NCBI GenBank assembly: GCA_015233565.1
Contig: JADFXM010000003.1
Coordinates: forward strand, 155,063 to 219,062
Reading direction: 5' to 3'
Length of the DNA stretch: 64,000 nucleotides
From: Candidatus Rifleibacteriota bacterium
GTDB lineage: Bacteria; Muiribacteriota; Ozemobacteria; Ozemobacterales; Ozemobacteraceae
Shown here: one piece after another, positions 7,323-46,563 of the stretch
How positions within the stretch are numbered: the stretch's first letter is position 1
How the letters are laid out: each line of letters begins with the position of its first letter
Translations under genes and position numbers: made by a program
Notes under the pieces: generated by a model
Seen by the model: the letters and a program-made list of their open reading frames with translations, nothing else
Databases searched by the model: none
What the model was told of the DNA's origin: nothing

Positions 7323-7379
7323 TTTTTTCCCCTTTTAAAATGTTGTTTTCTAGACTCCCTGTAAAGCTGTCTAAAAGTC

Positions 7380-8492: not shown

Positions 8493-8520
8493 AAATGCCC
8501 TCATTTGTTAGAAAATGATA

Positions 8521-9768: not shown

Positions 9769-9804
9769 ATTTTCCTTTTTCTCCCTTTGTTATATCATTT
9801 TCGG

Positions 9805-16934: not shown

Positions 16935-16972
16935 TCGCGCATTCCACTATCCGATAAACCGAACTAAAAAAA

Positions 16973-18001: not shown

Positions 18002-18003
18002 TC

Positions 18004-25051: not shown

Positions 25052-25786
25052 TCATCCTTCAAGCCCCTCAAGCCCGCCCTCAAAAATAATTTTCCCTTTT
25101 TCCAAATGTATAATTTTTGAGCAGGTTTTCCTAATTTGTTCGAAATCATGGCTGACAACCAAAAAAGTTTTACCTGATTGAACGAAATGATCAATTTTTT
25201 CGGAAACCTTTTTTTTGAAATCGAGGTCACCTACTGCGAAAGTTTCATCCATTATTATAATATCCGGTTCAACTAAATTTATCGCAACCGAAAAACCCAG
25301 ACGGAGAAACATTCCGCTTGAAAAATGTTTTATTGGAATATCAATAAATTTCTTTACCCCTGCAAAATTTACAATTTCGTCAAAACGTTCATGAATTTTT
25401 TTCATTGATTGCCCAAAAATTACCCCATTTAGGAAGATATTCTCTCTTCCGGTCAAGTCCGGGTGAAATCCAGCTTCCAATTCAAGGAAAGAACACATAT
25501 TACCGAAAATAGTAACCCTTCCTTCGGTGGGGCAATAAATTCGGGAAAGAATTTTTAACAAAGTGGATTTGCCCGAGCCATTTGGGCCGATTAAACCTAT
25601 TCGGTCACCTTTTTTGATTTCAAATGAAATATTTCTTAAAGCCCAGAAATCTTCGTAATGCGTTGCGAAGATTTTCCTCTTAATTTTATGGAAAAAGTTT
25701 TTTAGCAAAGAACGTTTTGTTTCCACTTCGTGGAAAATTTTAAACTTCTTTCCGATTCCCTCAACTCTTATGGCAATTTCGTTCAT
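25052..25786 (-). CDS. wzt: Polysaccharide ABC exporter ATP-binding protein (Wzt/TagH-like, short form without C-terminal carbohydrate-binding domain)
   Basis: Walker A GPNGSGKST, signature-like FSSGMFLRLGF, and Walker B IIIMDE. It overlaps the upstream ABC-2 permease by 4 nt. Confidence 0.85.
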   Translation of the reverse strand: MNEIAIRVEGIGKKFKIFHEVETKRSLLKNFFHKIKRKIFATHYEDFWALRNISFEIKKGDRIGLIGPNGSGKSTLLKILSRIYCPTEGRVTIFGNMCSFLELEAGFHPDLTGRENIFLNGVIFGQSMKKIHERFDEIVNFAGVKKFIDIPIKHFSSGMFLRLGFSVAINLVEPDIIIMDETFAVGDLDFKKKVSEKIDHFVQSGKTFLVVSHDFEQIRKTCSKIIHLEKGKIIFEGGLEGLEG

Positions 25787-26607
25787 ACTTTTTCCGCAAA
25801 ATACTTTTCATAGTAATTAAAAATTAAGATTGAAAGAAGGAACATGCAAAAAGAAAAACATGTGGAAAGCACACAAACTCTTTTGGAAAAGAAACTGTTC
25901 AGATTTAATGCCCATCTAAAACCTTCAATATAAGATGAGACGGGGTTTAAATATAATACAAAATGCCATTTCTCTGAAATCATTGAAAAATCATAAATTA
26001 CCGGAGATGCATACATCCACAATTGCAGGAGGAAGGTTATACCATTTAGGAAGTCCCGAAAGAAAACAGTGATGGTACAAAAAAGTAGCCCAAAAGCTAA
26101 CGCTAGAATTATAGTTATCAAAATGAAAAAAGGAAGGAATAGAAATCGAATGGTAATATCCAGGTGAAAGAAAAAAATTAAAAAAATGATCAAAACCAGC
26201 GAAATCAGAAAATCAAAAAACGCTGGAAAGACATCAGCGATGGGAATAACTAATTTTGGGAAAAAAATTTTGGAAATCAAAGTGGCGTTAGAAACAAGAC
26301 AACCGGTATTTCTGACAATAATCTTGGAAAAAAGATTCCAAATCGCCATTCCACAGAACAATTTTAAAAAGTATTCCTGATTGGCTTTTTGAATATTTCC
26401 AAAAACCCCAAAAATAAAAAAAAAGGTTATTGTGGGAAGCAAGGGCTGAAGTATTATCCATAAAAACCCCAAAACAGCTTGTTTTACTCGAAGCTGAATG
26501 TCTCTCCACCCAATTAACCAAATCATTTCACGATATTTCCAAAATTCGGAAAAGTTGAAGGAGAAAAACTTATTTTCGGATCCTATTATTGTAACTTTTT
26601 CATCCAT
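25783..26607 (-). CDS. wzm: ABC-2 type polysaccharide exporter permease (Wzm-like)
   Basis: Six-TM ORF with the N-terminal EFWKYREMIWLIGWRDIQLRVKQAVLGFLWIILQP motif typical of Wzm/TagG. ATG at 26607; the track start at 26622 is a GTG. Confidence 0.8.
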   Translation of the reverse strand: MDEKVTIIGSENKFFSFNFSEFWKYREMIWLIGWRDIQLRVKQAVLGFLWIILQPLLPTITFFFIFGVFGNIQKANQEYFLKLFCGMAIWNLFSKIIVRNTGCLVSNATLISKIFFPKLVIPIADVFPAFFDFLISLVLIIFLIFFFHLDITIRFLFLPFFILITIILALAFGLLFCTITVFFRDFLNGITFLLQLWMYASPVIYDFSMISEKWHFVLYLNPVSSYIEGFRWALNLNSFFSKRVCVLSTCFSFCMFLLSILIFNYYEKYFAEKV

Positions 26608-26846
26608 AATTATTAATTGCACTCAAATAGGGTTATTGTAGCTCTAAACCTTTTTTGCAAGATGTTTTAATCGGACAAATTTCTCTTTTCTTAAAGGGTA
26701 AACTTTTCTATTCCACGGGATTCCTTTAACTTAGCTTAACACTTGCACCTTGATGGCCCTTCTTAATCCAAATGATAAAAAGGTATTTTTCTTTCCTTTA
26801 TAACCAATTCTTTACATTTTACCACTCAATAGTTTAACATTTACCC

Positions 26847-29024
26847 ATGGATCTTTCATATAAACTTCTCATGTATTTTTTAATCGCAAATGTTGCCTTT
26901 ATGATTTTTTCCCTGATCTCTAAAGGCGTCCGAGTTTATAAGGCTTATCTTTTCCAACTTTCTTTGGTTCTGTTTTTCATGTTGTTTTCGTTAAAATACG
27001 ATGAAGATGGTTCCAAATCAATACTTATTTCTGTTTTCCTGCTTTTTTTGTTTGTGATACTTCCCTATATTCTCCAAAAAAGAATTGAGCTTTTGCTTTT
27101 TGAACAACGTTTTGACGAACTTGAATGGCCGGCGAAGGTAAAATCTCTTCTTGCCTGGAGCGCGATGAACTACCATATTCTTGAGCTGGCACGAGCGGTT
27201 AAACCATTTAGTCTTGATCCTGCTGTTGCCGAGAAAAATATCCTATTACTCCTTGGACGCGGTGAGCCGTTTGAAAGTTTAACGCGAATTTGTCTTGCTC
27301 AGGTATATATTAATCAGAGGAAATTCCAGGGTATTATCGATTGCTTATTCCCTCCCAATGTGAAAATTAGTGAATTGTCTTCTGAAGAAATGATATTTAT
27401 CACTCGCAGTTTGCTTGAAACGGAAAGATTTGAACAAGCAATTGAACTTCAGATTGCGCTTGAAGAAAAAGTGCAAACTGAGACAAATAAATACTTTCTT
27501 GACAGTGTAGTTGTTTCAAGACTGCTTCTTTTTTCGTTTCTCGGTTGGAAAGAAGATTTTGAAAACCTTCTTAAACCTGGAAATCAGGATTTGCCTTCTT
27601 TGCCTCCATTGATAAAAGAATTCTGGAACGGTGTAACTCTTTATAATTCAGGGAAATGCGAAGAAGGTCTGGGAATCCTGCGAACGATATTAAATTCACA
27701 GGAACTTGAGTTCTTCCCTGAAAATTGGCAGGGAGGAATTCGTTCAAGATATGAAGAATTGAACCAACGTCATGAGCGATTCTTGAAAGAAGTTTTCCCT
27801 AAACTTGAAGAAATTAAACAAAAAAATCATACGATTTTTCTCGAAAAACTTCAAAAGTTCACTGTTCGAAAGGAACCTATAAAAGGTCCTGTTATTGCCA
27901 CTTATTCTTTGATTCTGCTTTTGTCTCTGAGTTTCGGAATTTCTCGAGCTATGGGAAATCTTTTTGATATCGGGGATTTAGTTACTTTTGGCGCTAACAA
28001 TGCAATTCTCGTAGAAAATGGCGACTACTTCAGACTTTTTTCTTGCCTTTTTTTGCACATGGGTTGGATTCACTTTTTGATGAATATTCTGGCTTTGTAC
28101 TACATTGGTCCTTCACTTGAAGCTCGAACCGGAACCAGCATTTTTCTGGGGATATTCCTGATTTCAGGATTATCCGGAAGCATTGCAACGGTCTATTTTC
28201 ATCCTGGAATCTCTGTAGGAGTTTCCGGGGCAATTCTTGGCCTGTTAACGGCTTCAGCTGCGCTTGAACTATTTCAGAAAAAAAAGCCCAGGATTCTGGG
28301 TCCTGGTAGCAAATTGTCAGCGCTATTTTTTATTATTTTCCTGAATATTCTTATTGGCTTCTTCGAAAAAGGTGTTGATAATAGCGCCCATATTGGTGGA
28401 ATGATTGGCGGATTCCTTTCAGGTTTGACAGCAAGAGTTTTTTTGAAATTTTCTATTTTACGATTATTTGCCAAATTGATCTCCTGGGTTGGATTTATAA
28501 TTGTTTTGTTCATTTTGTTATCAAGCATTTCCACAAGCAAGCTTGAACTACCTTATTTGTTTGGTGGAGGTTTTGAACGGAAAAATATTGAATCTCTCGG
28601 CTATAAACTCAAAGTTCCCCAGAGATGGCTCTTCCAGGAACCAACCAAAAAAGAGCCAGAAAAATTTTCTATGACGGGGCCTCTAGGTGAAAGAATGGAT
28701 TTCCTCCTGGGAGAATGGTATGAAAATGGGGATGTTCTGGCAAAGGAATATTCCGATAACAGAACCAAAGGAATTTTGAAAAATTCTGAGTTAGAACTGA
28801 AAGGCGTTTCTGATCCTGCTTCATTTTCAGATGGAATCTGGGAATGTTGGGGAATGAAATGGCGACTTGAAGCTTTTGGAAGGCCATTCGTCCAAAAGGA
28901 CTATATTTGTCTGGCATCACAAACAGTCCTTTTTGTGCAATGCCTTTTACCTACCGACCGGGATACCGTTTATGACAATTTCTTAAAAAATGTCATTGGC
29001 GCAATAAAGCCGCTTAAACCCTGA
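26847..29024 (+). CDS. Rhomboid-family intramembrane serine protease with long N-terminal (TM + helical-repeat) and C-terminal extensions
   Basis: The central region FLHMGWIHFLMNILALYYIGPSLE...GVSGAILGLL...AHIGGMIGGF contains the rhomboid HxxxN, GxSG (catalytic Ser) and H-x4-G motifs. Confidence 0.8.
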   Translation: MDLSYKLLMYFLIANVAFMIFSLISKGVRVYKAYLFQLSLVLFFMLFSLKYDEDGSKSILISVFLLFLFVILPYILQKRIELLLFEQRFDELEWPAKVKSLLAWSAMNYHILELARAVKPFSLDPAVAEKNILLLLGRGEPFESLTRICLAQVYINQRKFQGIIDCLFPPNVKISELSSEEMIFITRSLLETERFEQAIELQIALEEKVQTETNKYFLDSVVVSRLLLFSFLGWKEDFENLLKPGNQDLPSLPPLIKEFWNGVTLYNSGKCEEGLGILRTILNSQELEFFPENWQGGIRSRYEELNQRHERFLKEVFPKLEEIKQKNHTIFLEKLQKFTVRKEPIKGPVIATYSLILLLSLSFGISRAMGNLFDIGDLVTFGANNAILVENGDYFRLFSCLFLHMGWIHFLMNILALYYIGPSLEARTGTSIFLGIFLISGLSGSIATVYFHPGISVGVSGAILGLLTASAALELFQKKKPRILGPGSKLSALFFIIFLNILIGFFEKGVDNSAHIGGMIGGFLSGLTARVFLKFSILRLFAKLISWVGFIIVLFILLSSISTSKLELPYLFGGGFERKNIESLGYKLKVPQRWLFQEPTKKEPEKFSMTGPLGERMDFLLGEWYENGDVLAKEYSDNRTKGILKNSELELKGVSDPASFSDGIWECWGMKWRLEAFGRPFVQKDYICLASQTVLFVQCLLPTDRDTVYDNFLKNVIGAIKPLKP

Positions 29025-29042: not shown

Positions 29043-30062
29043 ATGGTTAAAGAACCTGAGAAGCTTGATAAAGTAGAAAAAATCAGCCGAATCTCTCTTA
29101 TCAATCTTAAACGTGAAATCGGAAAAGTCATAATTGGAAATGAGAACGTGATTGATCCGGTTCTGGTTTCCATCTTTGCCGGAGGACATGTGCTTTTGGA
29201 GGGTGTCCCCGGGCTAGGTAAAACTCTTTTGGTAAAAACCCTCTCAAGAATTCTTCAAATGAGCTTCAAAAGGATTCAATTTACCCCTGACCTCATGCCC
29301 GCTGATATTATTGGTACCCAAATAATTCAGGAAGATGAAAAGAATCGAAAAAGTTTCGTTTTCCAGGAGGGTCCGATTTTTTCGAATATTGTACTCGCTG
29401 ACGAAATTAATCGTGCGACTGCTAAGACTCAATCCGCTCTTCTTGAAGCGATGGCCGAAGGAACAGTCACATCCGGGAGCGAAACACATCTTCTTCCCAA
29501 GCCATTTTTTGTCCTAGCTACTCAAAATCCCATCGAAATGGAAGGGACTTACCCCTTACCTGAAGCTCAGTTAGACCGTTTCTTTTTCAAAGTTCTCATT
29601 GATTCTCCGACAAAAGAAATGCTGGAAAATATTCTTGAAAAGACCACTGGAAATGAAGAACCGGAACTATTGAAAATGTTGGGTGGCGGTGAGTTGCTCG
29701 AGGGCCGAAAAACAATCAGAGAAATTCCCATCGCGAAACATCTGCGGGAAGCAATTGCACAGCTTATTTCTTCCACTCATCCAAAAAACCAATCATCTCC
29801 CCCACAAATTAAACGTTATGTTGCATATGGCAGTTCGCCCCGGGGCCTTCAAGCAATAGCACTTGGCGCAAAATCCATGGCGTTCCTTCGTGGTCGGAAT
29901 CATGTTTCTTTTGAGGAGATTAAGCTTGTTTGTAAACCAGCCTTGAGGCATCGGTTAATCCTGAATTTCGAAGGTGAAGCAGAAGGAATTTCTGTGGATG
30001 AGATTATCGATAAACTGGTTTCCCAAATTGAATCCAGCCTGGTTATCGGGAAGCCGGCATGA
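29043..30062 (+). CDS. MoxR-family AAA+ ATPase
   Basis: Walker A GVPGLGKT, Walker B VLADEINRA, and ATQNPIEMEGTYPLPEAQLDRF, which is diagnostic of MoxR/RavA-type AAA_3. Confidence 0.9.
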   Translation: MVKEPEKLDKVEKISRISLINLKREIGKVIIGNENVIDPVLVSIFAGGHVLLEGVPGLGKTLLVKTLSRILQMSFKRIQFTPDLMPADIIGTQIIQEDEKNRKSFVFQEGPIFSNIVLADEINRATAKTQSALLEAMAEGTVTSGSETHLLPKPFFVLATQNPIEMEGTYPLPEAQLDRFFFKVLIDSPTKEMLENILEKTTGNEEPELLKMLGGGELLEGRKTIREIPIAKHLREAIAQLISSTHPKNQSSPPQIKRYVAYGSSPRGLQAIALGAKSMAFLRGRNHVSFEEIKLVCKPALRHRLILNFEGEAEGISVDEIIDKLVSQIESSLVIGKPA

Positions 30063-30225: not shown

Positions 30226-30813
30226 GTGATAAATCTAAATTCTGAAATTGACACTAATACGCTGAAGCGCTTAAACGTTCCATTATTCTTAATTATTTGT
30301 CTCTTTTTTTTTCAGGGAATTCCTAAGCCCGAGCCACCGACTGCTGAAGAGCTGGTCGAGGTTGCATTTGGACAGTTAATGATGGATAACGTTTATGCTG
30401 CCGAAAAATTGTATTGTCAGGCTTATGAATTGGATAAAAATAACCCTGAGGCGATCAAAGGGTTGGGAATGGTAGCCATAATTAGAGAAAATCCGGAAGA
30501 AGCTTTTCAATATTTTTCAGTGCTTGAAGGAATAAAAAAAAGTGGTTTTAAAGATTTTCTTGATATTGGGCTTTTATTCGAGAAGCAGAAAAAATTTGAT
30601 AAAGCCGAAGAATTGTACAACTATGTTTTAAAAAACTATTCTGATTGCTTTCCGGCTTCTTATCGTCTCGCAAAAGTGGAATCTGAAACTGGTAGAAATA
30701 GCCAGGCATTGTCTCGCCTGGAAGAACTATTAAAAAAAATGCCAGAGGGTTTTGAGAAAAGCCAAGCTTCCGCAGGTTTAACCTTTTTACGCTCACAAAC
30801 TGGAACTAAATAA
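30226..30813 (+). CDS. Membrane-anchored TPR-repeat protein
   Basis: N-terminal TM segment (VPLFLIICLFFFQG) followed by TPR-like repeats (AEKLYCQAYELDKNNPEAIKGLG..., AEELYNYVLKNY). GTG start. The TAATG junction with the next gene is a 1-nt overlap. Confidence 0.65.
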   Translation: MINLNSEIDTNTLKRLNVPLFLIICLFFFQGIPKPEPPTAEELVEVAFGQLMMDNVYAAEKLYCQAYELDKNNPEAIKGLGMVAIIRENPEEAFQYFSVLEGIKKSGFKDFLDIGLLFEKQKKFDKAEELYNYVLKNYSDCFPASYRLAKVESETGRNSQALSRLEELLKKMPEGFEKSQASAGLTFLRSQTGTK

Positions 30814-32792
30814 TGTCAATTTCACCAAATGCACAAATGACAATCGATACCCAAATTACAGAGACTTCAAAACAGGATTTGCCAAGAGTTCTGGGAATTT
30901 CAGCTGTCAAAAATAAATTCCTGGGAATTCTTGCGTCGCTTCCTGATTTTCTTCTATTGCTCACGATTTTTCTTCCAATGATATTCCGTGAAAATGAAAT
31001 CGACGATTATCCCAGGCTTTGTACTGAATATTATTCTTTGTTTTTTGGAATGTTTTTTATTATTTCAGTTCAACTTCAGAATTTTTTTTCAGGTAGAAGC
31101 CTTTTTTCAGGAGCTTCATATTCCAAAACACGGATTTTTGTTATTCTTTTCTTTGTCTATTTGTTCTTTAATAGTTTCATGGCTTTTAATCCACTTCCGG
31201 CCCGGAAGCATCTTGCAGCAGTTTTGGGATTTTTCTTAATTGCCCAGAGTTTCCTTGACTGGCTTGAGTTTTCGCCCAAAAAGTTAAATAGAGCCATTTT
31301 TTTCATTGGTTTTGCCGTGGCATTTCAATTAGGAGTTGGATGCTTCGAATACAATGGTATTCCAAAACCGGTTGACCGGGAATATTCCAGTAAAGATTTG
31401 ATTTCTCCGGTGGGAGGTTTTTTTTCCACGAGGGCTTGGGGTTTTATTTGCTCGATTAAACCCGCTTCAGGATCAAAAGATAAAATATACGGGACCTTTA
31501 ACAATCAGAATTTTTTTGCAGAGTTTCTAATTTTAACTGTCCCACTAGTTGTTTTTTCGTTGTTTACTCAATCTAGAATTTTATATCGCTTGGCAATCTT
31601 CCTGTTTCTAATTCCTATGCAGGTTTTTCTTTACTATATTAACTGTCGCGCAGCCTGGATTGGATTGATTTCTGCTGGTGTGGCTGTGTTATTAACATTT
31701 AAATCTAAGTTAAGTAATTCAAGAAAATCACTTTTCCTTTTATTTTGCGTAATCTCAGTTTCCATAGCACTTTTGGCTTCTTATTTTTTCATTTTCTCAT
31801 CTCCTCAAAAACTTGCGGAGGACCCAAATATCGAAGGACGCCTCAGCAATTGGAAAGTTGCATTCCAGCTATGGCTTGATCATCCGATTTTCGGTTGTGG
31901 GTTGGGAAATTATAAATTGGTATCTGAAGATAAGGTAAGATCTCAGGTAAAGAGTGGAAAACTTCCGAAAATTTTTTCGGTTGCCCGATTTTTTCAAGTT
32001 CATAACGAGGTATTGCAAGCATTCGTTGAATTTGGCTTAATTGGCGGAATACTTATTTTTCTTGCTTTCGGGCTTTGGACTTACGAAACATTTCACAACC
32101 AATCATTGGAAGAGTATAAAAAAATTGGACTTTTTTGGGGAATTTTTGGCACGGTAATTGCCGGACAATTTGGATTCCCATTTCACATTTCTTCCACGGT
32201 ACTTTTTTTGCTTTTGTTCATTTGCATTGGCATTTCAAACAGTGAAAGAAAGCAAATTGAGCCCAATAGCGATAAAAAATCCATTTTTGTAATTAACTTT
32301 TTATCTATAATTTTACTGGTACTTGTTCTTGGAACGACATTTTTCCGTTCGATTTACCCGGTCTACCTTGGGGGATTGTATGAACGTCCAACTCCTTTTT
32401 TGGTTGAAAAACATCACTATGAGTGCGCGGAAAAAGCTATAGTTTTAGCGGATAGATTCATTAGATATAGAGGTGATTTAAGAATTGCTCTTCTCGAGTG
32501 TTTTGTTCATTTAGGAAAATTTCGCGAGGCGGCAATTCTATTTGAATTAAGTAAAAAGGAGGGTTTGCCTATTAATTCATTTTTTTGGGTGGCGACTTCG
32601 TATGCTTTGCTTGGCCGCTTTTTTGAATCTGCATTTTATTTTTGTGAGTTAATGAAATTTTATGACGACCAATCAAAACTTGCTGAAACGGTTGCTCGGG
32701 TTTCTCCTAAATTGGAATTTAATTTTGAATTACCTACTATTATTGAAAACTTGAATTACATAGGTTTTCTAAAACTTTTGAGATTGTTTTGA
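30813..32792 (+). CDS. Wzy_C (O-antigen ligase / PglL-PilO-like) polytopic membrane protein with C-terminal helical-repeat domain
   Basis: Multi-TM protein with FFQVHNEVLQAFVEFGLIGGILIF, the H-N-x-x-L-x-x-x-x-E-x-G-x-x-G loop motif of the Wzy_C family. Confidence 0.75.
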   Translation: MSISPNAQMTIDTQITETSKQDLPRVLGISAVKNKFLGILASLPDFLLLLTIFLPMIFRENEIDDYPRLCTEYYSLFFGMFFIISVQLQNFFSGRSLFSGASYSKTRIFVILFFVYLFFNSFMAFNPLPARKHLAAVLGFFLIAQSFLDWLEFSPKKLNRAIFFIGFAVAFQLGVGCFEYNGIPKPVDREYSSKDLISPVGGFFSTRAWGFICSIKPASGSKDKIYGTFNNQNFFAEFLILTVPLVVFSLFTQSRILYRLAIFLFLIPMQVFLYYINCRAAWIGLISAGVAVLLTFKSKLSNSRKSLFLLFCVISVSIALLASYFFIFSSPQKLAEDPNIEGRLSNWKVAFQLWLDHPIFGCGLGNYKLVSEDKVRSQVKSGKLPKIFSVARFFQVHNEVLQAFVEFGLIGGILIFLAFGLWTYETFHNQSLEEYKKIGLFWGIFGTVIAGQFGFPFHISSTVLFLLLFICIGISNSERKQIEPNSDKKSIFVINFLSIILLVLVLGTTFFRSIYPVYLGGLYERPTPFLVEKHHYECAEKAIVLADRFIRYRGDLRIALLECFVHLGKFREAAILFELSKKEGLPINSFFWVATSYALLGRFFESAFYFCELMKFYDDQSKLAETVARVSPKLEFNFELPTIIENLNYIGFLKLLRLF

Positions 32793-32803
32793 GATAAAAA
32801 AAA

Positions 32804-34465
32804 ATGCCTGAAAGACTTCTGATTGTTGGGTTGTTAATTGGAGTTGCATTTTTCTTTCCAAGTTTTCTGATTGCATTTCTTGAATCAAAAGAAGCTTTTT
32901 TAGCTGTTTTTTCTTTTGTTATTCTACTCAGGTTGTTTTTTTTACCTTCAATTAAGATAAAAAAGAATTTCTTTTTTCCTGTTTTTGTAATTTTTCTGGT
33001 TTCATTGGTTTTTTTTCTTCACCAACGCTTGGCAGGAAGTTTTATTTCGCTCAATTTTTATTATATTGCATTGTTCATGTTTGTTTTGATTTTGTTAAAC
33101 CAAGCTGAAAATCTAAACCCAGATGATGATTCCAGGCTTTTTGTTATTTTCTATAGCTTTTTTGTGATTCTGGGTCTTTTGGAATTCTTTGGTGTCACAT
33201 TATTTAATCATCCATTTCAGGGAACGACGCTTTTTGGAAACACCGAATTCTTTTCCTCTTTCTTTTCTCCCTTGTCAGTAATAGTTATTCCATTTTATCT
33301 CGCTTCCTCTAAAAATGGAAAATTGCTTTCCCTTTCATTATTAATAACTTCGGTTTTCTTTTATTTCTTACTTGGAAGCAGAATCGGCTTCATTTCAATG
33401 TTTTGTGGCTATCTTGTTTTTTTCATTGCCGGGGGAATTTCCCTTGATTTTGAAACCAAGAAATCATTAAAAAAACTGTTTTTAGTGTTTGGGATTTCTT
33501 TCTTTTTAGCAATTCTAGTTATCCCTAAGCTGACTTCCCACAGCAATGTAATCGAAAAATCTTTTCAGGAAGGGGGAAGCCAAAATATCCAAGTAAGGTT
33601 TGTTTTTTGGAAATTTGCTTTTGAAATGTTCCTCCAAAACCCGATTCTGGGCGTTTCTCCAGAAGGATTCAGATTTAATTACCCTTCGTTTCTTGACAAA
33701 TTTTTAAGCTTGAACCCTGACAAAAAGACATTGTTTGAATCAGGGGTTGCTGGAAATGTCCATTGCGAGCCACTTCAATTTTTAACTGAATATGGATTTC
33801 TAGTTTTTGTGCTTGTCTTTTTCTTGATTTTTAGAGGAATAATAAGATCCTTCAAGTTGCTTCAAAAAGCAACAAATGAAGAAAAAATCCGAGGTGTTGC
33901 TTCTTTCTCTATTATTATTTCTTTTTTCATCAATTCTCTTACCGGTCCGTCCTTTCATCTTTTTCCTACGACATTGTTAACCTTTTTCCTAGCTTACCGG
34001 TTTTTTAAAGACGAAGAAATAGAAATTCAACTTCCCCTGGATAAAAAATATTTAAGAATTTTGTTCTTTCTAATCGGATTGATTATTTCCGGGCAAATAT
34101 TTCTTTATTCGCTTTCTTCGCATTATTTCTACTTAGGGAGCTTTGAAAATGATTTTGCTTCAAGGGAAATTCTTTTTAAAAGAGCCCTGGACCTTAAACC
34201 GTTTGAACCCAGATATAGCGATGCCTTAGCCAACTTATACCTTGACCAGGGAAAACTGGATTTAGCTGCTGATAATTTAAGCTCAGCTTTGAAATTTTCA
34301 AATAACCCTGGTTTACTATTTACACTTGGAAGACTTAAGTTTGAGCAAAAAGATTATCGCGAAGCAACAAAAGCTTTTATTATTTTTTCACGATTGCAAC
34401 CGAATTCTAGTCTTGCGGAAAATTATCTGACCGAGATTCTGAAAAGAACTGGTCCTGCAAAATGA
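32804..34465 (+). CDS. Wzy_C (O-antigen ligase / PglL-PilO-like) polytopic membrane protein with C-terminal TPR domain
   Basis: Multi-TM protein with the Wzy_C-like loop GNVHCEPLQFLTEYGFLVF and C-terminal TPR-like repeats (ALANLYLDQGKLDLA..., FEQKDYREATKAF). Confidence 0.7.
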   Translation: MPERLLIVGLLIGVAFFFPSFLIAFLESKEAFLAVFSFVILLRLFFLPSIKIKKNFFFPVFVIFLVSLVFFLHQRLAGSFISLNFYYIALFMFVLILLNQAENLNPDDDSRLFVIFYSFFVILGLLEFFGVTLFNHPFQGTTLFGNTEFFSSFFSPLSVIVIPFYLASSKNGKLLSLSLLITSVFFYFLLGSRIGFISMFCGYLVFFIAGGISLDFETKKSLKKLFLVFGISFFLAILVIPKLTSHSNVIEKSFQEGGSQNIQVRFVFWKFAFEMFLQNPILGVSPEGFRFNYPSFLDKFLSLNPDKKTLFESGVAGNVHCEPLQFLTEYGFLVFVLVFFLIFRGIIRSFKLLQKATNEEKIRGVASFSIIISFFINSLTGPSFHLFPTTLLTFFLAYRFFKDEEIEIQLPLDKKYLRILFFLIGLIISGQIFLYSLSSHYFYLGSFENDFASREILFKRALDLKPFEPRYSDALANLYLDQGKLDLAADNLSSALKFSNNPGLLFTLGRLKFEQKDYREATKAFIIFSRLQPNSSLAENYLTEILKRTGPAK

Positions 34466-34532
34466 ATCCCTTTAAGGTTTCTGGGTGACACCTGGTCGTT
34501 GAGCGGAGCCGAAGCGCTTCCAATGGTGGTTA

Positions 34533-35405
34533 CTACCACTGATACCAATAAGAAGTTGTTACTGTTGCTGGAACGATATTTCCTGGTGAAGCAGCTAATA
34601 AATAACTTCCAAATTGGCTCCAGTGCTGAAGTGATTGCATCGCGCAGGAAGCAGCCACACCGGTGGATTCAGTCCAGGCTGATGGAAAAATGCCGGTTGC
34701 TGGGATACCGTTGATTTCAGCCCATTTTTCGATCATTACGTTGTCTAATAACCCGGTTCCGGTGGTCGAAAAAGACATTTCCAAGTCAGTCGCTCCAATA
34801 AGGGTAAAATATTGGGAAAAGCGGCACCATTCCGTGGAAGTCGAATGTATTTCTGCCAAGGGAGTCGGATCAAATTTTTTTGTTACTTTGGCAATGAACT
34901 CGTTGGTCGAAGTCCCTTTAAACCAATAGCTGAGGACATAGGTAGCAGGAGGTATCGGAAATAACGAAACGTATTGAGAAATTGCAGATTGAGTGACTAA
35001 CCACCCGTCTGGAATTCCATTTCCGGCAGTATAATCTCCTTGGTTTTTGTAGTCGAACCCTACATCTGTTTCAAGGCTCGGGTTTTTTACACAATTTATT
35101 ACTGTCCTCCAATTGAAAGGGAAATCCAATGAATTGAAGTTTGCTGAAGCACGGGGATACCTGCAAAGGGCAACAGTTGCAAGATTTGTAATTAAGTTTG
35201 AGGAATCTTGGTCGCTGAGTTTATCGGGATAACTTGCTAAAGCAGTTTTAATTCCACTTCTGAGATTATTAAGGTCTTCCTGTAGAATTTTTTCCTGAAG
35301 CCGTTTTTGAATGTTGGATTCATCAGGAAGAGAGAGCATTGCTTCAAGTACTAGAATACCGAAAAAAATGATCAGCAAAAAAATAATATTTCCCTTGCGA
35401 TTCAT
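34533..35405 (-). CDS. Signal-anchored secreted protein with C-terminal beta-sandwich (CBM/jelly-roll-like) region; function unknown
   Basis: 290-aa ORF with the N-terminal hydrophobic helix NIIFLLIIFFGILVL and then a pseudopilin-like helix (LNNLRSGIKTALASY). The C-terminal pattern YVLSYWFKG...EWCRFSQYF...LEMSF is reminiscent of carbohydrate-binding jelly-rolls. It is divergent from the pilin array. Confidence 0.5.
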   Translation of the reverse strand: MNRKGNIIFLLIIFFGILVLEAMLSLPDESNIQKRLQEKILQEDLNNLRSGIKTALASYPDKLSDQDSSNLITNLATVALCRYPRASANFNSLDFPFNWRTVINCVKNPSLETDVGFDYKNQGDYTAGNGIPDGWLVTQSAISQYVSLFPIPPATYVLSYWFKGTSTNEFIAKVTKKFDPTPLAEIHSTSTEWCRFSQYFTLIGATDLEMSFSTTGTGLLDNVMIEKWAEINGIPATGIFPSAWTESTGVAASCAMQSLQHWSQFGSYLLAASPGNIVPATVTTSYWYQW

Positions 35406-35422
35406 ATTCGCTTATTATATAT
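35394..35422 (+). promoter_or_regulatory. Sigma-70-type promoter of pilin gene A (-35 TTGCGA, 17-nt spacer, -10 TATATT)
   Basis: TTGCGA at 35394-35399 and TATATT at 35417-35422. The same hexamers with the same spacing precede copies B and C. The -35 element overlaps the first codons of the divergent gene. Confidence 0.5.
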
Positions 35423-35469
35423 TATCTGTGGGAGTTTGTGAATTTTTTAATCCCCCAAGGGAGGAAAAT

Positions 35470-36312
35470 ATGAATTTCTTGTCGAGAAAGCGCGGCTTTA
35501 CACTATTGGAGTTATTGATAGTCGTGGCGATTATCGCAGTTTTGATTGCTTTAGCTTTGCCGTTTTACCAAGATTATATTACAAAATCTAAATATACTGC
35601 TGCTCTGGCTGACTTGTCAAACATTCGCAAAGCAGTTCAGATGTATGAGCAGGTAGAACAAAGCTCATTGACAGTCTTCGATTTGCGGCCTCTGATCGGT
35701 GACTATCTCGAAGACTTCAGAAAAAGCGATTTGACTCAGACAACTCCGCGTGATCCCTATGGAAATGACTATTCCTTTAATCCTGAACGCGGTCTTCTAA
35801 TCTCTTATGGCCCGAACCATATGTGTGAAATGACAACAGCTGACTTGAAAGCAAGACGAGCTACCGGAGACGACATCTGTGTGACATATCTTCCGCCGTT
35901 TTATTTAATGAGGGTTTCTACTTTGAATAACCGCGAACTTGAACTTGAATTTTCTAGAAGAGTTAATGATAGTCTTATCAGCTCTGGGATGTTCGGATTT
36001 TATGTTCTTGACACTACCACTGGACAACCCAAAAATCCGGCTACAGGTGCAAACTTTAGTGGAAATGCTGAGATTTATCGAATTTCTTCGACAGTTTATC
36101 GTCTTCGATTTCAAGATGCTGACAAGCTTCAATCGGGTGCCTATTATCGCGCCTATGCGAATGGTGTAAAATCCCAAGGGGGAAGAAATCTTACAAGCGA
36201 CCCTGGAACTGTTGGAAACTGTGATGCTGACGACCGACCAGGAAGCGAAACAAAAACTAGCATGAACACAAATAATGGCGCTTGGCTTGATTTCAGCGCG
36301 CCTGCTTCATAA
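35470..36312 (+). CDS. Prepilin-type protein A: GspG-like pseudopilin/type IV pilin core + ~130-aa C-terminal Ig-like extension
   Basis: Class III signal KRG|FTLLELLIVVAIIAVLIALALP (Gly-1, Phe+1, Glu+5) and a GspG-like core ...PRDPYGNDYSF...ISYGPN. GGGAGG Shine-Dalgarno before the ATG at 35470; the track ORF is over-extended to 35311. The protein ends ...DFSAPAS. Confidence 0.85.
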   Translation: MNFLSRKRGFTLLELLIVVAIIAVLIALALPFYQDYITKSKYTAALADLSNIRKAVQMYEQVEQSSLTVFDLRPLIGDYLEDFRKSDLTQTTPRDPYGNDYSFNPERGLLISYGPNHMCEMTTADLKARRATGDDICVTYLPPFYLMRVSTLNNRELELEFSRRVNDSLISSGMFGFYVLDTTTGQPKNPATGANFSGNAEIYRISSTVYRLRFQDADKLQSGAYYRAYANGVKSQGGRNLTSDPGTVGNCDADDRPGSETKTSMNTNNGAWLDFSAPAS

Positions 36313-36326
36313 TTGAAAAAAAATTG

Positions 36327-36351
36327 GCCCTCCATAAAGGAGGGCTTTTTT
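36327..36351 (+). terminator. Intrinsic terminator after pilin gene A
   Basis: GCCCTCC (36327-36333), loop ATAAA, GGAGGGC (36339-36345), then TTTTTT. Confidence 0.8.
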
Positions 36352-36391
36352 GCTTTTAGGAAAAAAAATCTTCTTAAATAATAATTTTCCC

Positions 36392-36420
36392 TTGCGATTC
36401 ATAATTGTTTGCTATATATT
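36392..36420 (+). promoter_or_regulatory. Sigma-70-type promoter of pilin gene B
   Basis: TTGCGA at 36392-36397, 17-nt spacer, TATATT at 36415-36420, inside the conserved repeat. Confidence 0.5.
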
Positions 36421-36465
36421 TCTTATAGAGTAAATTAGCTTTCTTAATCTCCAAGGGGGGAATAC

Positions 36466-37308
36466 ATGAAACATTTTTTGAATAAACGCGGCTTTACACT
36501 ACTTGAATTGTTGATTGTCGTTGCGATTATCGCTGTACTGATTGCTTTGGCATTGCCCTATTATCAAGATTATATCGAAAAATCAAAATATTCCGGTACT
36601 CTTGCAGATTTGTCGAACCTTCGCAAAGCTGTTCAAATGTATGAACAGATGGAATCGAAATCTCTTAGTACTTTTGATATGAGACCTCTTATCGGTAGAT
36701 ATATCGAAGATTTTCGAAAAAATGACCTTACCCAGACTACTCCCCGGGACCCCTATGGTAACGATTATTCCTTCAACCCAATGTACGGAATTATCTTTTC
36801 CTACGGTCCGAATCATATTGCAGATATGAATAACGCTGCTATGAAGGCGAGATATGCAACTGGTGACGATATAATAACTACCTTTCTCCCCCCATTTTTT
36901 TTGAAGAGGGCGATTGCACTTGATAATAAAGAAGTTGAAGTGGAATTTTCTCGGAAAGTAAACGAGTCTACTGTCATACCAACAACATTCTATTGGCATA
37001 AAGATCAGACATGGACTCACAATGGCGGAACTGCAGTGGGAGCAGGAAATGGTAAATGTGGGGATAACGCAGGTGGTTCTCCGACTGTAACAAAAATTTC
37101 CCCAACCGTTTTTCGTTTCCGTTTTGATGACAATAATTTGCTAACAGCGGGCTCATACTATTGTCTCTATATTTCTGGAATTTCATCAGCACAAGGGCGC
37201 TATATGGGAGCCACCGAATGTGATGACCGCCCGGGACTTGAAGCCAGCAGCGATATCGGTGGTGGAACCAACAGCGGTTGTTGGCGCGAATTTACCATGC
37301 CTGATTAA
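36466..37308 (+). CDS. Prepilin-type protein B (paralogue of A)
   Basis: KRG|FTLLELLIVVAIIAVLIALALP and PRDPYGNDYSF. The N-terminal ~165 aa are highly similar to A and C while the C-terminal extension diverges. The protein ends ...EFTMPD. Confidence 0.85.
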   Translation: MKHFLNKRGFTLLELLIVVAIIAVLIALALPYYQDYIEKSKYSGTLADLSNLRKAVQMYEQMESKSLSTFDMRPLIGRYIEDFRKNDLTQTTPRDPYGNDYSFNPMYGIIFSYGPNHIADMNNAAMKARYATGDDIITTFLPPFFLKRAIALDNKEVEVEFSRKVNESTVIPTTFYWHKDQTWTHNGGTAVGAGNGKCGDNAGGSPTVTKISPTVFRFRFDDNNLLTAGSYYCLYISGISSAQGRYMGATECDDRPGLEASSDIGGGTNSGCWREFTMPD

Positions 37309-37333
37309 TTCTTTTTCATAAAATCTTTTGATG

Positions 37334-37355
37334 CCCTCCTTTTGGAGGGTTTTTT
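37334..37355 (+). terminator. Intrinsic terminator after pilin gene B
   Basis: CCCTCC (37334-37339), loop TTTT, GGAGGG (37344-37349), then TTTTTT. Confidence 0.8.
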
Positions 37356-37412
37356 GATTTCGAAAAAAAATGAAAACAATGCAAAATCACTTCAAAAAAA
37401 TTAATATTTCCC

Positions 37413-37441
37413 TTGCGATTCATAATTGTTTGCTATATATT
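37413..37441 (+). promoter_or_regulatory. Sigma-70-type promoter of pilin gene C
   Basis: TTGCGA at 37413-37418, 17-nt spacer, TATATT at 37436-37441, inside the conserved repeat. Confidence 0.5.
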
Positions 37442-37488
37442 TCTTAATAGTGGGAATTACCTTTCTTAATCTCCATCGGGGGGGAAAT

Positions 37489-38307
37489 ATGAAACATCGT
37501 TTGAATAAACGCGGCTTTACGCTTCTTGAGTTGCTGATTGTCGTTGCAATTATCGCAGTTTTGATTGCTTTGGCCTTGCCGTTTTACCAAGACTATATTG
37601 AAAAATCCAAATATACTGCTACTTTGGCTGATTTGTCGAGTCTTCGAAAAGCTGTACAAATGTATGAGCAAGTTGAACAAGCCTCTCTCACTCTTTCTGA
37701 TTTGAGACCCTTGATTGGTAAATACATAGAAGATTTCCGAAAAAATAATCTACTCCAATTATTACCACGTGATGCATACGGAAATGATTATTCAATAAAT
37801 CCGACATATGGTTTGATAATATCTTATGGTCCTGATCATAAATTGAATATGACTGCCTCTGATTGGAAAGCAAGACGATCTAGAGGTGATGACCTTGTAA
37901 CCGCTTATCTTCCTCCATTTTATTTGATGAGGGTTTCCCCTTTGAACAGGCGCGAATTTGAGGTCGAGTTCTCTCGCAAAATTCTTACCTCTTCCATTTC
38001 AACGACCAATTTTTATTGGTTACATTGGGGAACTCACACCATTGTTAATGCGGGTGATGCAACTGAACGCCCTGATGGTCGACTTTTCAGGATTTCTCCG
38101 ACTATCTTCCGTTTCCGTTTTACCAGTGATACTGGCTCTCTCACTGCGGGAGGAGACTACCGCCTTTACGTAGATGGAATTAGTGCTCAAACAGGCCGAA
38201 GCCTGTCGACTGCCGATTCTGATGACCAACCTGGATATGAATCGTCAAGTAGTGGGGGTGGTTCAAACAGCGGTTGCTGGGTTGATTTCAGTGTTCCGGC
38301 TTCATAA
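37489..38307 (+). CDS. Prepilin-type protein C (paralogue of A/B)
   Basis: KRG|FTLLELLIVVAIIAVLIALALP and PRDAYGNDYSI. ATG at 37489, preceded by a G7 Shine-Dalgarno tract; the track ORF is over-extended to 37426. The protein ends ...DFSVPAS. Confidence 0.85.
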   Translation: MKHRLNKRGFTLLELLIVVAIIAVLIALALPFYQDYIEKSKYTATLADLSSLRKAVQMYEQVEQASLTLSDLRPLIGKYIEDFRKNNLLQLLPRDAYGNDYSINPTYGLIISYGPDHKLNMTASDWKARRSRGDDLVTAYLPPFYLMRVSPLNRREFEVEFSRKILTSSISTTNFYWLHWGTHTIVNAGDATERPDGRLFRISPTIFRFRFTSDTGSLTAGGDYRLYVDGISAQTGRSLSTADSDDQPGYESSSSGGGSNSGCWVDFSVPAS

Positions 38308-38323
38308 TTTCAAATGTCCAATC

Positions 38324-38349
38324 GCCCCCATTTTGGGGGCTTTTCTTTT
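38324..38349 (+). terminator. Intrinsic terminator after pilin gene C
   Basis: GCCCCC (38324-38329), loop ATTTT, GGGGGC (38335-38340), then TTTTCTTTT. Confidence 0.75.
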
Positions 38350-38360: not shown

Positions 38361-38882
38361 ATGAGTTTTAATTCAAAACCGCATTCAATTCAAGCTGGAT
38401 TGACCCTTCTTGAAGTCATTTTTGCCACTGCACTTCTTTTGGTTTTTTCGCTCGTGATTTTCACTCCGCAGGAGATAATCCAACGAAGGCAAGCGGAATA
38501 TGAATTGAAAACAGCGCTCCACGATATGAGGGGGGCACTAGACCAATTCTACCTTGATCGGGGAGAGAGGGCCACTTCAATATATTCTTTGATGACTATT
38601 CCCAGAAAAGATGGCGGGGGTTTTTATTTGCGAAATTTTCCCCTTAACCCTTTTACGGCAAGCACCCAATGGTCAATCCGGGCTACTGATGCCGATGAGG
38701 CTGCAACAATTGACTTGGGTTGGACATTCATTTGCTCTCCCCAAGCCACTTTACCTCTTGATGCGGGAATTATTAACATTCGTGTACCAAGTATCCCTGC
38801 GACCACCCTTTCTGGGGTAGCATCCTGCGTTTTTGACGACAATTTTGTAAGCCTGAATGGAATTCCTTATTATAAGTGGTAG
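38361..38882 (+). CDS. Prepilin-type N-terminal cleavage/methylation-domain protein (minor pseudopilin-like)
   Basis: QAG|LTLLEVIFATALLLVF (Gly-1, Glu+5) followed by a helix ending ...ALDQFYLDRGE, as in GspG/H-type pseudopilins. Confidence 0.7.
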   Translation: MSFNSKPHSIQAGLTLLEVIFATALLLVFSLVIFTPQEIIQRRQAEYELKTALHDMRGALDQFYLDRGERATSIYSLMTIPRKDGGGFYLRNFPLNPFTASTQWSIRATDADEAATIDLGWTFICSPQATLPLDAGIINIRVPSIPATTLSGVASCVFDDNFVSLNGIPYYKW

Positions 38883-45165: not shown

Positions 45166-46539
45166 ATGCAAAGTTTGATACCTGAAAACCACTGGAAATA
45201 TATTTTTTTTGCCTTTGCAATTAATATTTTTTTGAGGGGAATCCTCTTTTTTGCAGTTTTTCCTGAGGATCATGTTCTTCGATTGGATGACCAAGGGGAA
45301 TACCTTTCCCTTGCTGAAGCAATTGAAAAAACTGGTTTTGATGAGAATTTCAAAGTTGGAAGAACCCCGACCTATCCTTTGTTTTTATACATTTGCTCCC
45401 ATATTTCAAAGAGTCTTTTCTTTCCGATAATTGTCCAACATGGCATTGGATTAGGTGCCATTTTTTTTGTTTATTTATCGGGATTCTTGTTTTCCGAAAA
45501 AATTGCCTTGTTTTCGTTATTCCTGGGAGCTCTGAATTTCAATTTTATTGTACTAAGTAATTATTTATTGTCTGATTCTCTATATTATCCAATGTTTTGC
45601 GTCCTTTATTTTTTTATCTTACGATTTTATTTGCTGGGTTCGACTGTCACAAATTCGGTTGCATTGGGTGTAGTTCTTGGGTTTTCCATTTTAATCCGTC
45701 CTGTCTCAATGTACATGCCGTTTTTTATTATCCCCTTTATTATTTGGACCAATAGGAAAATGTTTCGAAAGGGAATTATACATTCGTTAATATTCCTTTT
45801 TTCTGTTTCCATAATTCTTTGTCCATGGTTTTATAGAAACTATAAGGTATATCATGCTTTCGGATTGACTAACTTCGGCTATTATCAATTGATGACCGGG
45901 ATTATTCCGGGAGTGATGATGGGTGTACAAAATATTTCTTTCCGTGAGGCCCAGGAAAAAGCATGGGCAGGATGGGAAAAAGAGAAAACCAAGATTCCTA
46001 TGGAAATCCAAAAAAATCCTTTTGAAATAGATAGCATCGGGAAGGAATATGCTCTTAAGACTCTTTGGAGTTACCCTATTACCAATCTACTTTTTGCTTG
46101 GGGTTGGGGAGCTGCAAGAAATTTATTTTCTCCTGAAATTATTGAAATATCGCACCTGACAAATTGGGAATGGTCTCGGTTCGCTGATACTAAAGGATCA
46201 AACTACCTTGAAAAATCGTGGAATTTTATTTTTTCCAATAAAAACAGTTGGTATTCAGCACTGTTTTGCTTCGGGTGCTTTGTAGTCATCCTTCTGCGAA
46301 TTGTTCAAACAATTGGAGCTACTGTTTGGATGAAGCAGGATCCTGTAATGGTAATATTTTTGTTAGTAAATATTGTGTATTTCCTTCTTTTAATGGGACC
46401 TTATGGAAGTCCAAAATATCGACTTCCTTTTGAACCAATATTAATCATTTTTGGCGCATTTGGCATTCAAAAATTATTTTTGAAAGATTACAAGGCTAGC
46501 GAAAATAATGAAAAATTTTTAAGTGGCTCTAGGAGTTAA
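45166..46539 (+). CDS. GT-C fold membrane glycosyltransferase (ArnT/PMT, GT39/GT83-like)
   Basis: About 11 TM segments. The first loop DDQGEYLSLAEAIEKTGF resembles the D-E/D-x-x-Y-x-x-x-A motif of ArnT/PMT-type enzymes. Confidence 0.5.
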   Translation: MQSLIPENHWKYIFFAFAINIFLRGILFFAVFPEDHVLRLDDQGEYLSLAEAIEKTGFDENFKVGRTPTYPLFLYICSHISKSLFFPIIVQHGIGLGAIFFVYLSGFLFSEKIALFSLFLGALNFNFIVLSNYLLSDSLYYPMFCVLYFFILRFYLLGSTVTNSVALGVVLGFSILIRPVSMYMPFFIIPFIIWTNRKMFRKGIIHSLIFLFSVSIILCPWFYRNYKVYHAFGLTNFGYYQLMTGIIPGVMMGVQNISFREAQEKAWAGWEKEKTKIPMEIQKNPFEIDSIGKEYALKTLWSYPITNLLFAWGWGAARNLFSPEIIEISHLTNWEWSRFADTKGSNYLEKSWNFIFSNKNSWYSALFCFGCFVVILLRIVQTIGATVWMKQDPVMVIFLLVNIVYFLLLMGPYGSPKYRLPFEPILIIFGAFGIQKLFLKDYKASENNEKFLSGSRS

Positions 46540-46563
46540 TTTTTTCATTTTGGGAGTAACGAA

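Follow-up and report, generated by a model that had tools for sequence, protein, structure and literature searches.

The 64,000-nucleotide stretch of contig JADFXM010000003.1 analysed here (assembly GCA_015233565.1, Candidatus Rifleibacteriota bacterium; GC content about 38%), which in its whole length is called the window below, raises the question of why two adjacent genes for Wzy_C-family membrane proteins, Wzy1 and Wzy2, stand beside an array of three pilin genes, and whether their products might be protein O-oligosaccharyltransferases (O-OTases) that glycosylate these pilins. The answer we favour, tentatively and with somewhat less than even confidence, is that Wzy1, together with the small tetratricopeptide repeat (TPR) protein TPR195, may move a lipid-linked glycan in the periplasm onto the S-x-P-A-S tail of pilins A and C. 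The nearest relatives of the encoded proteins belong to metagenome-assembled genomes of Candidatus Riflebacteria, for which reason a Leptospira origin, considered on account of the GC content, was rejected. The genes concerned are as follows (aa, amino acids).

30226-30813, + strand: TPR195, 195 aa, a TPR protein anchored in the membrane by its N-terminal segment (matches to Pfam TPR_19 and further TPR families)
30813-32792, + strand: Wzy1, a polytopic membrane protein of 659 aa whose C-terminal tail is TPR-like (Pfam Wzy_C)
32804-34465, + strand: Wzy2, a 553-aa membrane protein with a TPR tail at residues ~435-550 (Pfam Wzy_C)
34533-35405, - strand: a divergent 290-aa pseudopilin-like partner of the pilin, matching partner genes in loci L002, L003 and L005-L007
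35473-36312, + strand: pilin A, 279 aa, ending ..WLDFSAPAS (N_methyl, E 2.8e-8)
36466-37308, + strand: pilin B, 280 aa, ending ..EFTMPD (N_methyl)
37486-38307, + strand: pilin C, 273 aa, ending ..WVDFSVPAS (N_methyl)
35395-38340, + strand: three repeated expression units, each a promoter-like site and a hairpin terminator
38361-38882, + strand: a minor pilin, 173 aa, with the motif G-L-T-L-L-E (weak N_methyl match)
45166-46539, + strand: a PMT_2-family GT-C glycosyltransferase, 457 aa (Pfam PMT_2)

Both Wzy1 (E 1.8e-19, 70.5 bits) and Wzy2 (E 2.1e-13, 50.7 bits) pass the gathering cut-off of the Pfam Wzy_C model (PF04932; 31.7 bits), and the preliminary description of this DNA was right in recognising here two adjacent Wzy_C proteins with TPR-like tails. 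Wzy1 carries VHNEVLQAFVEFGLIGG, which includes His397, and Wzy2 carries VHCEPLQFLTEYGF, which includes His320. In Wzy1, an exact H[NSQ]x9Gxx[GTY] motif, typical of ligases and PilO, is found at His397. Residues R279/R343/H397 of Wzy1 and R193/R265/H320 of Wzy2 align with R215/R288/H338 of the E. coli K-12 WaaL, the Arg-Arg-His spacing being 64 and 54 residues in Wzy1 versus 73 and 50 in WaaL. The WaaL residues correspond to R224/R298/H349 of PglL and are needed in both enzymes (PMC3643930). Both Wzy proteins thus conserve the residues on which catalysis by WaaL and PglL depends. They share just 24-27% identity with each other and are therefore old paralogues.

As to the C-terminal tails, that of Wzy2 is a bona fide TPR domain (E 3.6e-10 to consensus TPR proteins). 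The tail of Wzy1 gave no TPR match by sequence alone; it is modelled as five helical hairpins, the predicted structure matches TPR folds, and members of the Wzy1 family give weak or faint TPR matches, so that the label "TPR-like" is fair. In both proteins, the count of hydrophobic segments places after the catalytic periplasmic loop three WaaL-like helices, a Lys/Arg-rich loop and one extra helix. One helix beyond the WaaL core, combined with the positive-inside rule, predicts that both tails face the periplasm. The TPR domain of TPR195 is likewise predicted to be periplasmic, since Lys-Arg precedes its N-terminal hydrophobic segment, and the stop codon of TPR195 overlaps the start of Wzy1 by 1 nucleotide (TAATG). 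We consider Wzy1 the prime O-OTase candidate of the locus.

Pilins A, B and C share the prepilin motif G-F-T-L-L-E (N_methyl E 2-5e-8). Like type IV pilins and type II secretion system (T2SS) pseudopilins, they have a class III signal peptide, and a globular domain comes after their long N-terminal helix. The AlphaFold2 (AF2) model of pilin A (pLDDT 89) consists of a helix (11-61), a small head and an Ig-like beta-sandwich (145-275) whose best match is to the SbsC domains of an S-layer; its last strand occupies residues 271-275 and leaves the APAS tail free, and the Ser/Thr/Gly-rich loop just ahead of this strand is flexible (pLDDT 63-77). The proteins represent an atypical family of major pilins of Riflebacteria, 235-298 aa long, in which a GspG-like head is joined to an Ig-like domain resembling those of S-layers. 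An identical promoter-like sequence, TTGCGA-17-TATATT, occurs at 35395-35423, 36392-36420 and 37413-37441, inside a repeated upstream segment, and GC-rich hairpin terminators are located at 36326-36346, 37333-37350 and 38324-38340. With its own promoter-like site and terminator, each pilin gene looks independently and strongly expressed, and the repeated promoter/terminator blocks indicate tandem duplication of complete expression units.

The C-terminal endings of the array, S-x-P-A-S in pilins A and C and M-P-D in pilin B, are as the preliminary description gave them. Comparison of the 3' ends (37294-37308 in pilin B; 36298-36312 and 38293-38307 in the other two) shows that a single substitution (GCT to GAT) and the loss of the TCA Ser codon separate MPD* from PAS*, which makes PAS the ancestral and pilin B the derived state. 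The array therefore encodes tagged as well as untagged pilin variants. Among the approximately 57 homologues of these pilins (230-298 aa; nearly all the named ones come from Riflebacteria) the terminal residue is Tyr in 22, Phe in 14, Pro in 6, Ser in 4, Leu in 4, Gln in 3, Asp in 2, Trp in 1 and Thr in 1. The four members out of 57 that end in Ser are pilins A and C, the pilin P0007 of the closest sequenced genome (all three ending in PAS) and a protein ending ..APES, which sits on a 2.5-kb contig, too short to show its neighbourhood. P0007 is 61% identical to the pilins of the window. In the family alignment, the last strand, F-(S/T), stays in register throughout; in the PAS clade it is followed by 3-4 additional residues (xPAS) and preceded by a Ser/Thr/Gly-rich loop that is longer than elsewhere in the family.

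The only close relative of the whole locus, L001 (22 kb), was found in this closest genome, GCA_015232575.1, where the gene order is PMT_2, GT2-methyltransferase, the Wzy2 orthologue, the Wzy1 orthologue and the pilin P0007. The last three genes are consecutive, with nothing between the Wzy1 orthologue and the pilin; the two Wzy genes stand in swapped order relative to the window, and both are still by the pilin. Conservation of the terminal Ser in orthologous loci had been chosen beforehand as a check on the proposed glycosylation, and in this one orthologous locus the pilin, ending ..FSSPAS beside both Wzy_C orthologues, does retain it. Wzy1 is 46% identical to its orthologue (P0002), Wzy2 41% to a 596-aa protein, TPR195 50% to a 202-aa TPR protein (TPR202), and the PMT_2 enzyme 57.5% to the product of a gene lying 2 kb upstream of the Wzy pair. 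When every gene of the window was compared with L001 by tblastn, counterparts were found just for TPR195, Wzy1, Wzy2, the pilins and PMT_2; none of the glycan-synthesis genes proved to be common to the two loci. The L001 pair, too, is embedded among glycosyltransferase and sugar-modification genes, which form a cluster differing from that of the window. That the Wzy pair has been retained, with 41-46% identity, amid glycan genes that are all different argues against these proteins being glycan-specific Wzy polymerases. The locus is a module of five gene families (membrane-anchored TPR protein, Wzy1, Wzy2, PMT_2 and the major pilin of a machine resembling a type IV pilus) kept in two Riflebacteria.

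Five other loci of Riflebacteria with homologous pilins (L002, L003, L005, L006 and L007; pilin at position 10001) have a different organization: the pilin lies beside a pilus machine, in the order ~300-aa divergent partner, pilin, 151-171-aa minor pilin, HEAT, T2SSF, PilM-like and three small proteins, T2SSE, secretin. The minor pilin is present in four of the five, L002 being without one, and the secretin was called in L003 and L005-L007; in L005-L007 a giant Ig-repeat protein of ~3300 aa is also adjacent. None of these five loci has a Wzy_C gene within 10 kb of the pilin, and their pilins end in Phe, Tyr, Gln or Leu, never in Ser or Thr (0/5). The window keeps the cassette of partner, pilin and minor pilin, but by the Wzy pair rather than by the machine. 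Its divergent gene at 34533-35405, which had been described as encoding a secreted protein, is indeed there; its product is better described as a conserved pseudopilin-like partner of the pilin family. This protein lacks Glu5 in its hydrophobic N-terminus, has a conserved end, ..WYQW, and is 27-32% identical to the ~300-aa divergent neighbours of the pilins in all five machine-linked loci (which end ..WWFQW). The minor pilin, 32-36% identical to the gene product encoded 3' of the pilin in L003 and L005-L007, is a conserved partner encoded downstream of the major pilin. Among the loci sampled, the PAS tail appears restricted to the Wzy_C-linked ones: a Ser terminus is found in 2/2 of these against 0/5 of the machine-linked loci (Fisher p = 0.048). 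Since both positive genomes are related, this association is effectively one evolutionary event, subsequently maintained through rearrangement.

Pilin adjacency is known to predict O-OTases (PMC3643930). TfpO (Pseudomonas aeruginosa 1244, Acinetobacter) and TfpM (Moraxellaceae), enzymes that are 420-470 aa long and lack accessory domains (PMC9829042, Table 2), modify the C-terminal Ser or Thr of the pilin (PMC9829042). The locus resembles them in that a Wzy_C enzyme is encoded beside a pilin gene in the same orientation, the Ser/Thr of the pilin stands on a short exposed tail, and the catalytic His is conserved (PMC9829042). The pilin is directly next to the pair in L001, and one divergent gene intervenes in the window; the expected residue stands at the end of pilins A and C and of the pilin of L001, but not of pilin B. 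TfpO and TfpM are, however, encoded downstream of the pilin and belong to Proteobacteria, whereas here the enzymes are upstream and belong to Riflebacteria; TfpO and TfpM have no TPR, whereas the present locus has a pair of enzymes (553 and 659 aa) with TPR-type tails, and a separate TPR protein as well; and the pilin here, of ~275 aa, has an extra Ig-like domain which theirs do not. The likeness drawn here is one of gene arrangement and description. To our knowledge, every characterised pilin O-OTase (TfpO, TfpM, PglL and PglS) comes from Proteobacteria.

In architecture, the locus is nearer to the S-layer O-glycosylation systems WsaA/WsaB of Geobacillus stearothermophilus and WsfB of Paenibacillus alvei, and in functional layout to TfpO and TfpM. 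In the S-layer systems the TPR is either in cis or in an upstream 168-aa protein, and Wzm/Wzt export is used (PMC2943079). WsfB is a Wzy_C enzyme fused to a TPR, and WsaA is a small TPR protein encoded just upstream of the Wzy_C O-OTase WsaB; further common traits are Wzm/Wzt export and, as the substrate, an abundant surface protein composed of Ig-like domains (PMC2943079). This likeness, set by description, is one of architecture; those substrates are S-layer proteins of Firmicutes, glycosylated on Tyr in P. alvei, whereas here the substrate would be a pilin, and loci of the relatives encode an outer-membrane-type secretin. PglL of Neisseria and PglS share with the Wzy proteins the length (550-600 aa for PglL, PMC9829042), the Wzy_C core, the Arg/Arg/His residues and frequent pilin adjacency (PMC3643930, PMC9829042); PglL has also been reported with a C-terminal TPR motif (PMC2943079). 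They prefer Ser in flexible segments rich in Ala, Pro and Ser (PMC3643930, PMC9829042), PglL being general and PglS specific for ComP, but both use internal sequons and not the C-terminus. As for WaaL (Cupriavidus metallidurans, 7tpg; E. coli K-12), it is matched in fold by the Wzy1 model and has the same catalytic residues; it is, however, 400-420 aa long, has neither TPR tail nor TPR partner and is encoded in lipopolysaccharide (LPS) core/O-antigen loci, whereas the genes discussed here appear to travel with a pilin and not with a given glycan cluster. Glycan genes are near the Wzy pair in both genomes, none of them common to both loci, and the pilin is common to both.

The Wzy1 family is wider than Riflebacteria. 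An exhaustive search with a limit of E <= 1e-30 returned 23 cluster representatives; the majority are full-length proteins of 600-670 aa that share 24-30% identity with Wzy1, and their alignments extend into the tail region. A scan of the species-representative genomes of GTDB with an 8-sequence alignment found carriers in Candidatus Sericytochromatia (L008-L011) and one Pirellulales fragment. In five loci the Wzy1-family gene is preceded by paralogous lipoprotein genes, five to seven of which were counted in L010, L011, L032 and L033 and fewer recognised in L008. The arrays, together with the TPR and Wzy1 unit, extend as follows.

L008, 8180-12013: lipoprotein array, TPR and Wzy1 unit
L010, 1321-11004: lipoprotein array, TPR and Wzy1 unit
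L011, 1081-11863: lipoprotein array, TPR and Wzy1 unit
L032, 1738-11926: lipoprotein array, TPR and Wzy1 unit
L033, 1710-12403: lipoprotein array, TPR and Wzy1 unit

The lipoproteins have a lipobox, a long linker rich in Ala, Pro, Ser and Thr and beta-sandwich domains (CarboxypepD_reg or Big-like), and the genomes with arrays of this Sericytochromatia type are high-GC. Directly upstream of the Wzy1-family gene lies a gene for an anchored TPR protein of ~190 aa, with a stop/start overlap of 4 nucleotides in L008 and L032; TPR195 is homologous to the ~190-aa TPR proteins of L032, L033 and L008 (E 3e-11 to 2e-8). The TPR protein and Wzy1 therefore form a conserved unit, which in at least two phyla adjoins genes for abundant secreted surface proteins; the arrangement mirrors that of WsaA and WsaB and the TPR-bearing WsfB. 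Comparison of the Ig-like domain of the pilins with the Sericytochromatia lipoproteins by hidden Markov model (HMM) search gave no significant match. An independent Wzy_C-TPR protein, P0077, is encoded directly 3' of a pilin gene in the pilus locus L028. This locus (388-10330) comprises a gene for a 173-aa pilin, P0077, a prepilin peptidase gene and three more pilin-like genes, one of them for a 792-aa pilin with Big_1/invasin domains, and is interrupted by HEPN/nucleotidyltransferase and HicA/HicB toxin-antitoxin pairs.

Upstream of TPR195 the window contains the following features, which bear on the possible source of the glycan.

632-26622, - strand: glycan island (by Pfam and NCBIfam content)
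15240-22306, - strand: nonulosonic-acid module (Pfam NeuB, CTP_transf_3; NCBIfam TIGR04331)
25052-26622, - strand: Wzm/Wzt-type ABC-2 glycan exporter (Pfam ABC2_membrane and ABC_tran)
26847-29024, + strand: a protein of 725 aa in which long extensions towards both termini flank a central rhomboid protease domain
29043-30062, + strand: MoxR-type AAA ATPase

An island with a nonulosonic-acid module and a Wzm/Wzt exporter, reported earlier on, is thus present; the rhomboid, MoxR and TPR genes stand between it and the Wzy genes, which are 4 kb away. The rhomboid and MoxR genes are directly upstream of the TPR195-Wzy1 pair, and neither is kept in L001. The island encodes a NeuB-family synthase (Pfam NeuB, E 6.5e-72), two cytidylyltransferases (one a PseG-like fusion), a LIC12162-family transferase (TIGR04331, 327 bits, over its cut-off) and the Wzm/Wzt pair; an oxidoreductase also belongs to the nonulosonic-acid module. 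The NCBIfam models NeuB_NnaB, PseI and PseG were matched under their cut-offs only, as were the best NCBIfam models for the exporter (Wzt/RfbE, TagH, Wzm and KpsM). The number of radical-SAM enzymes in the island is unusually high, at least six, each having a SPASM or B12-binding domain. Further genes resemble those of transketolase and transaldolase or encode three aminotransferases, a CDP-alcohol phosphatidyltransferase and a TylF-type methyltransferase, and the radical-SAM and tailoring genes suggest a heavily tailored sugar or head group. The proposal that the product of this island is the pilin glycan found no particular support: it had proximity in its favour, beyond which we found no evidence for or against, and the orthologous locus lies in an unrelated glycan cluster. 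On the other side of the array, the conserved PMT_2 gene is followed by a gene for a B12-binding radical-SAM protein (45166-47961); the Wzy_C-TPR gene of L029 is likewise flanked by B12-radical-SAM and methyltransferase genes.

Under the favoured reading, the glycan would be built on undecaprenyl phosphate in the cytoplasm and brought to the periplasmic face of the membrane, for example by an exporter of the Wzm/Wzt type. Wzy1 would then use the Arg-Arg-His site of its large periplasmic loop to put the glycan en bloc on a hydroxyl of the exposed, Ser-rich S-x-P-A-S tail of the pilin, probably that of the terminal Ser; the Ser/Thr/Gly-rich loop just ahead of it is a possible alternative acceptor. 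The TPR-like tail of Wzy1 and the translationally coupled TPR195 would hold the protein substrate, and the transfer would take place before the pilin leaves the inner membrane, at a stage when its Ig-like domain lies in the periplasm. Pilin B, having lost the Ser codon, should stay unmodified at its terminus. As to the division of labour between Wzy1, Wzy2 and the PMT_2 enzyme, Wzy2 may be the lipid-acceptor ligase of the cell or else another transferase, serving a different glycan or a different site.

Several observations weigh against Wzy1 being a pilin O-OTase and leave room for an explanation that we consider unlikely though by no means negligible, namely that Wzy1 and/or Wzy2 are envelope-glycan ligases or polymerases acting on a lipid acceptor (LPS core or another glycolipid), with the pilins as their neighbours by history. 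By sequence and fold, the Wzy proteins resemble WaaL as much as anything. The model of Wzy1 is of moderate quality (pLDDT 63, core 70-90); in the Foldseek search its top match and the sole significant fold match in the PDB was WaaL (7tpg_B, probability 1.00, TM-score 0.52 on the target), and a four-sequence profile also reached only WaaL 7tpg in the PDB (E 6e-5), while single-sequence PDB searches with each Wzy protein matched just the TPR tail or noise. The PglL_A domain (PF15864) gave no match in Wzy1 or Wzy2 at E <= 0.01; PilO/TfpO, too, is without it (PMC3643930), so its absence leaves O-OTase activity possible. Three residues reported as conserved in PglL and not in enteric WaaL (G316, G318 and H400) served as a test of the PglL type: Wzy1 has P358/G361/G363 at a PglL-like spacing from the Arg and a second His, His458, both of which are missing in the E. 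coli WaaL. This P-x-x-G-x-G and second-His discriminator was dropped, the validated Cupriavidus WaaL having P-x-x-G-x-G as well. Sequence and fold place both proteins in the WaaL/O-OTase superfamily without telling its two kinds of members apart, which is the normal situation for these enzymes (PMC3643930), and a WaaL-like fold is also expected of O-OTases. The Wzy proteins are 100-200 aa larger than TfpO and depart from the size and architecture of TfpO and TfpM (PMC9829042). Neither a pilus machine nor an initiating phosphoglycosyltransferase was found in the 64-kb window, and the linkage with a Ser-ended pilin is seen in two related genomes only, so that p = 0.048 is not an independent measure. 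Outside Riflebacteria, no prepilin gene occurs within 10 kb of the Wzy1-family gene in 19 GTDB loci, bar one unrelated gene 8 kb off, for which reason we rejected the idea that the family is generally pilin-linked. The pilin beside P0077 ends ..VARK, another Wzy_C-TPR protein, P0081, is encoded in a classical polysaccharide cluster (L030: Bac_transf, WecG, GT1, GT2), and P0005 and P0078 (L027 and L029) are encoded among unrelated genes in neither a pilus nor a polysaccharide context; given these mixed contexts, the Wzy_C-TPR architecture was rejected as a mark of protein substrates. TPR domains are also typical of polysaccharide-export scaffolds. A lipid-acceptor ligase would further agree with the Wzm/Wzt exporter of the island 4 kb away, which would need one, with the setting of the L001 pair, and with the GT2, GT1 and GT4 genes that follow the Wzy1-family gene of L033. 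Nevertheless, the pair has been kept although none of the glycan genes around it is the same; only in the two genomes with the pair has the pilin left its usual site at the pilus machine; both proteins are 130-240 aa longer than the E. coli WaaL (419 aa) and carry tails predicted to be periplasmic TPRs; and what lies upstream of the Sericytochromatia-type TPR and Wzy1 unit is secreted lipoproteins, not sugar enzymes. A polymerase role is opposed, in addition, by the Wzm/Wzt pair of the island, as the ABC-transporter pathway needs no Wzy polymerase, by the fact that no Wzx flippase was seen in the 64-kb window, and by the persistence of the orthologues across different clusters.

The lipoprotein arrays of L008, L010, L011, L032 and L033 admit another explanation, in our opinion improbable: that TPR195 and Wzy1 constitute a general, PglL-like O-OTase modifying many proteins of the periplasm and the cell surface at disordered segments rich in Ala, Pro and Ser, for which the pilins are one substrate and their terminal Ser is incidental. 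The S-x-P-A-S tail has the same composition as the lipoprotein linkers, the pilins carry in addition the flexible loop before the last strand, and the size of PglL and its reported TPR motif are compatible with this; however, PglL_A is absent, and the tight pilin linkage in both Riflebacteria and the clade-specific tail suggest a dedicated pair. TfpW and actinobacterial Pmt transfer sugars from polyprenyl-phosphate donors to Ser/Thr. Assigning a similar role to the PMT_2 GT-C enzyme, as the transferase glycosylating the pilin from such donors while the Wzy_C proteins serve another glycan, seems to us quite improbable: it is the best conserved enzyme of the module (57.5%) and is encoded 2-7 kb from the pilin in both genomes, yet never immediately adjacent to it, its family also covers ArnT-like lipid A modifiers, and none was seen beside the Wzy1-family units of L032 and L033. 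For a pilin-modifying OTase outside the Wzy_C family there is a precedent in TfpW (bioRxiv 10.1101/2020.04.19.049825). On balance, the claim that Wzy_C proteins glycosylate the pilins stands in a weakened form, sustained by the linkage, the clade-specific PAS tail and the predicted periplasmic TPRs, and qualified by the WaaL-like character of the enzymes and the absence of PglL_A.

Taken more broadly, the anchored ~190-aa TPR protein and the translationally coupled Wzy1-family enzyme, which has a TPR-like tail of its own, might represent an unrecognised class of protein O-OTases outside Proteobacteria, targeting short disordered segments, rich in Ala, Pro and Ser, of abundant surface proteins: lipoprotein arrays in Sericytochromatia-type genomes and, in Riflebacteria, major pilins with an acquired S-x-P-A-S tag. 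We hold this generalization to be rather doubtful; if it is true, S-x-P-A-S would be a compact natural sequon. If the prediction for the pilins is right, the solution that combines a Wzy_C enzyme with a Ser-terminated pilin would extend to an uncultured candidate phylum, in a different architecture that has a pair of paralogous enzymes, a GT-C enzyme besides, and TPR supplied both in cis and in trans; there would also be a mechanistic link to the S-layer glycosylation of Firmicutes. O-OTases with short terminal sequons are wanted for bioconjugate vaccines, and S-x-P-A-S is a candidate tag of four to five residues. The locus may also provide a first functional handle on the TPR-tailed proteins of the "O-antigen ligase family", a large group about which little is understood.

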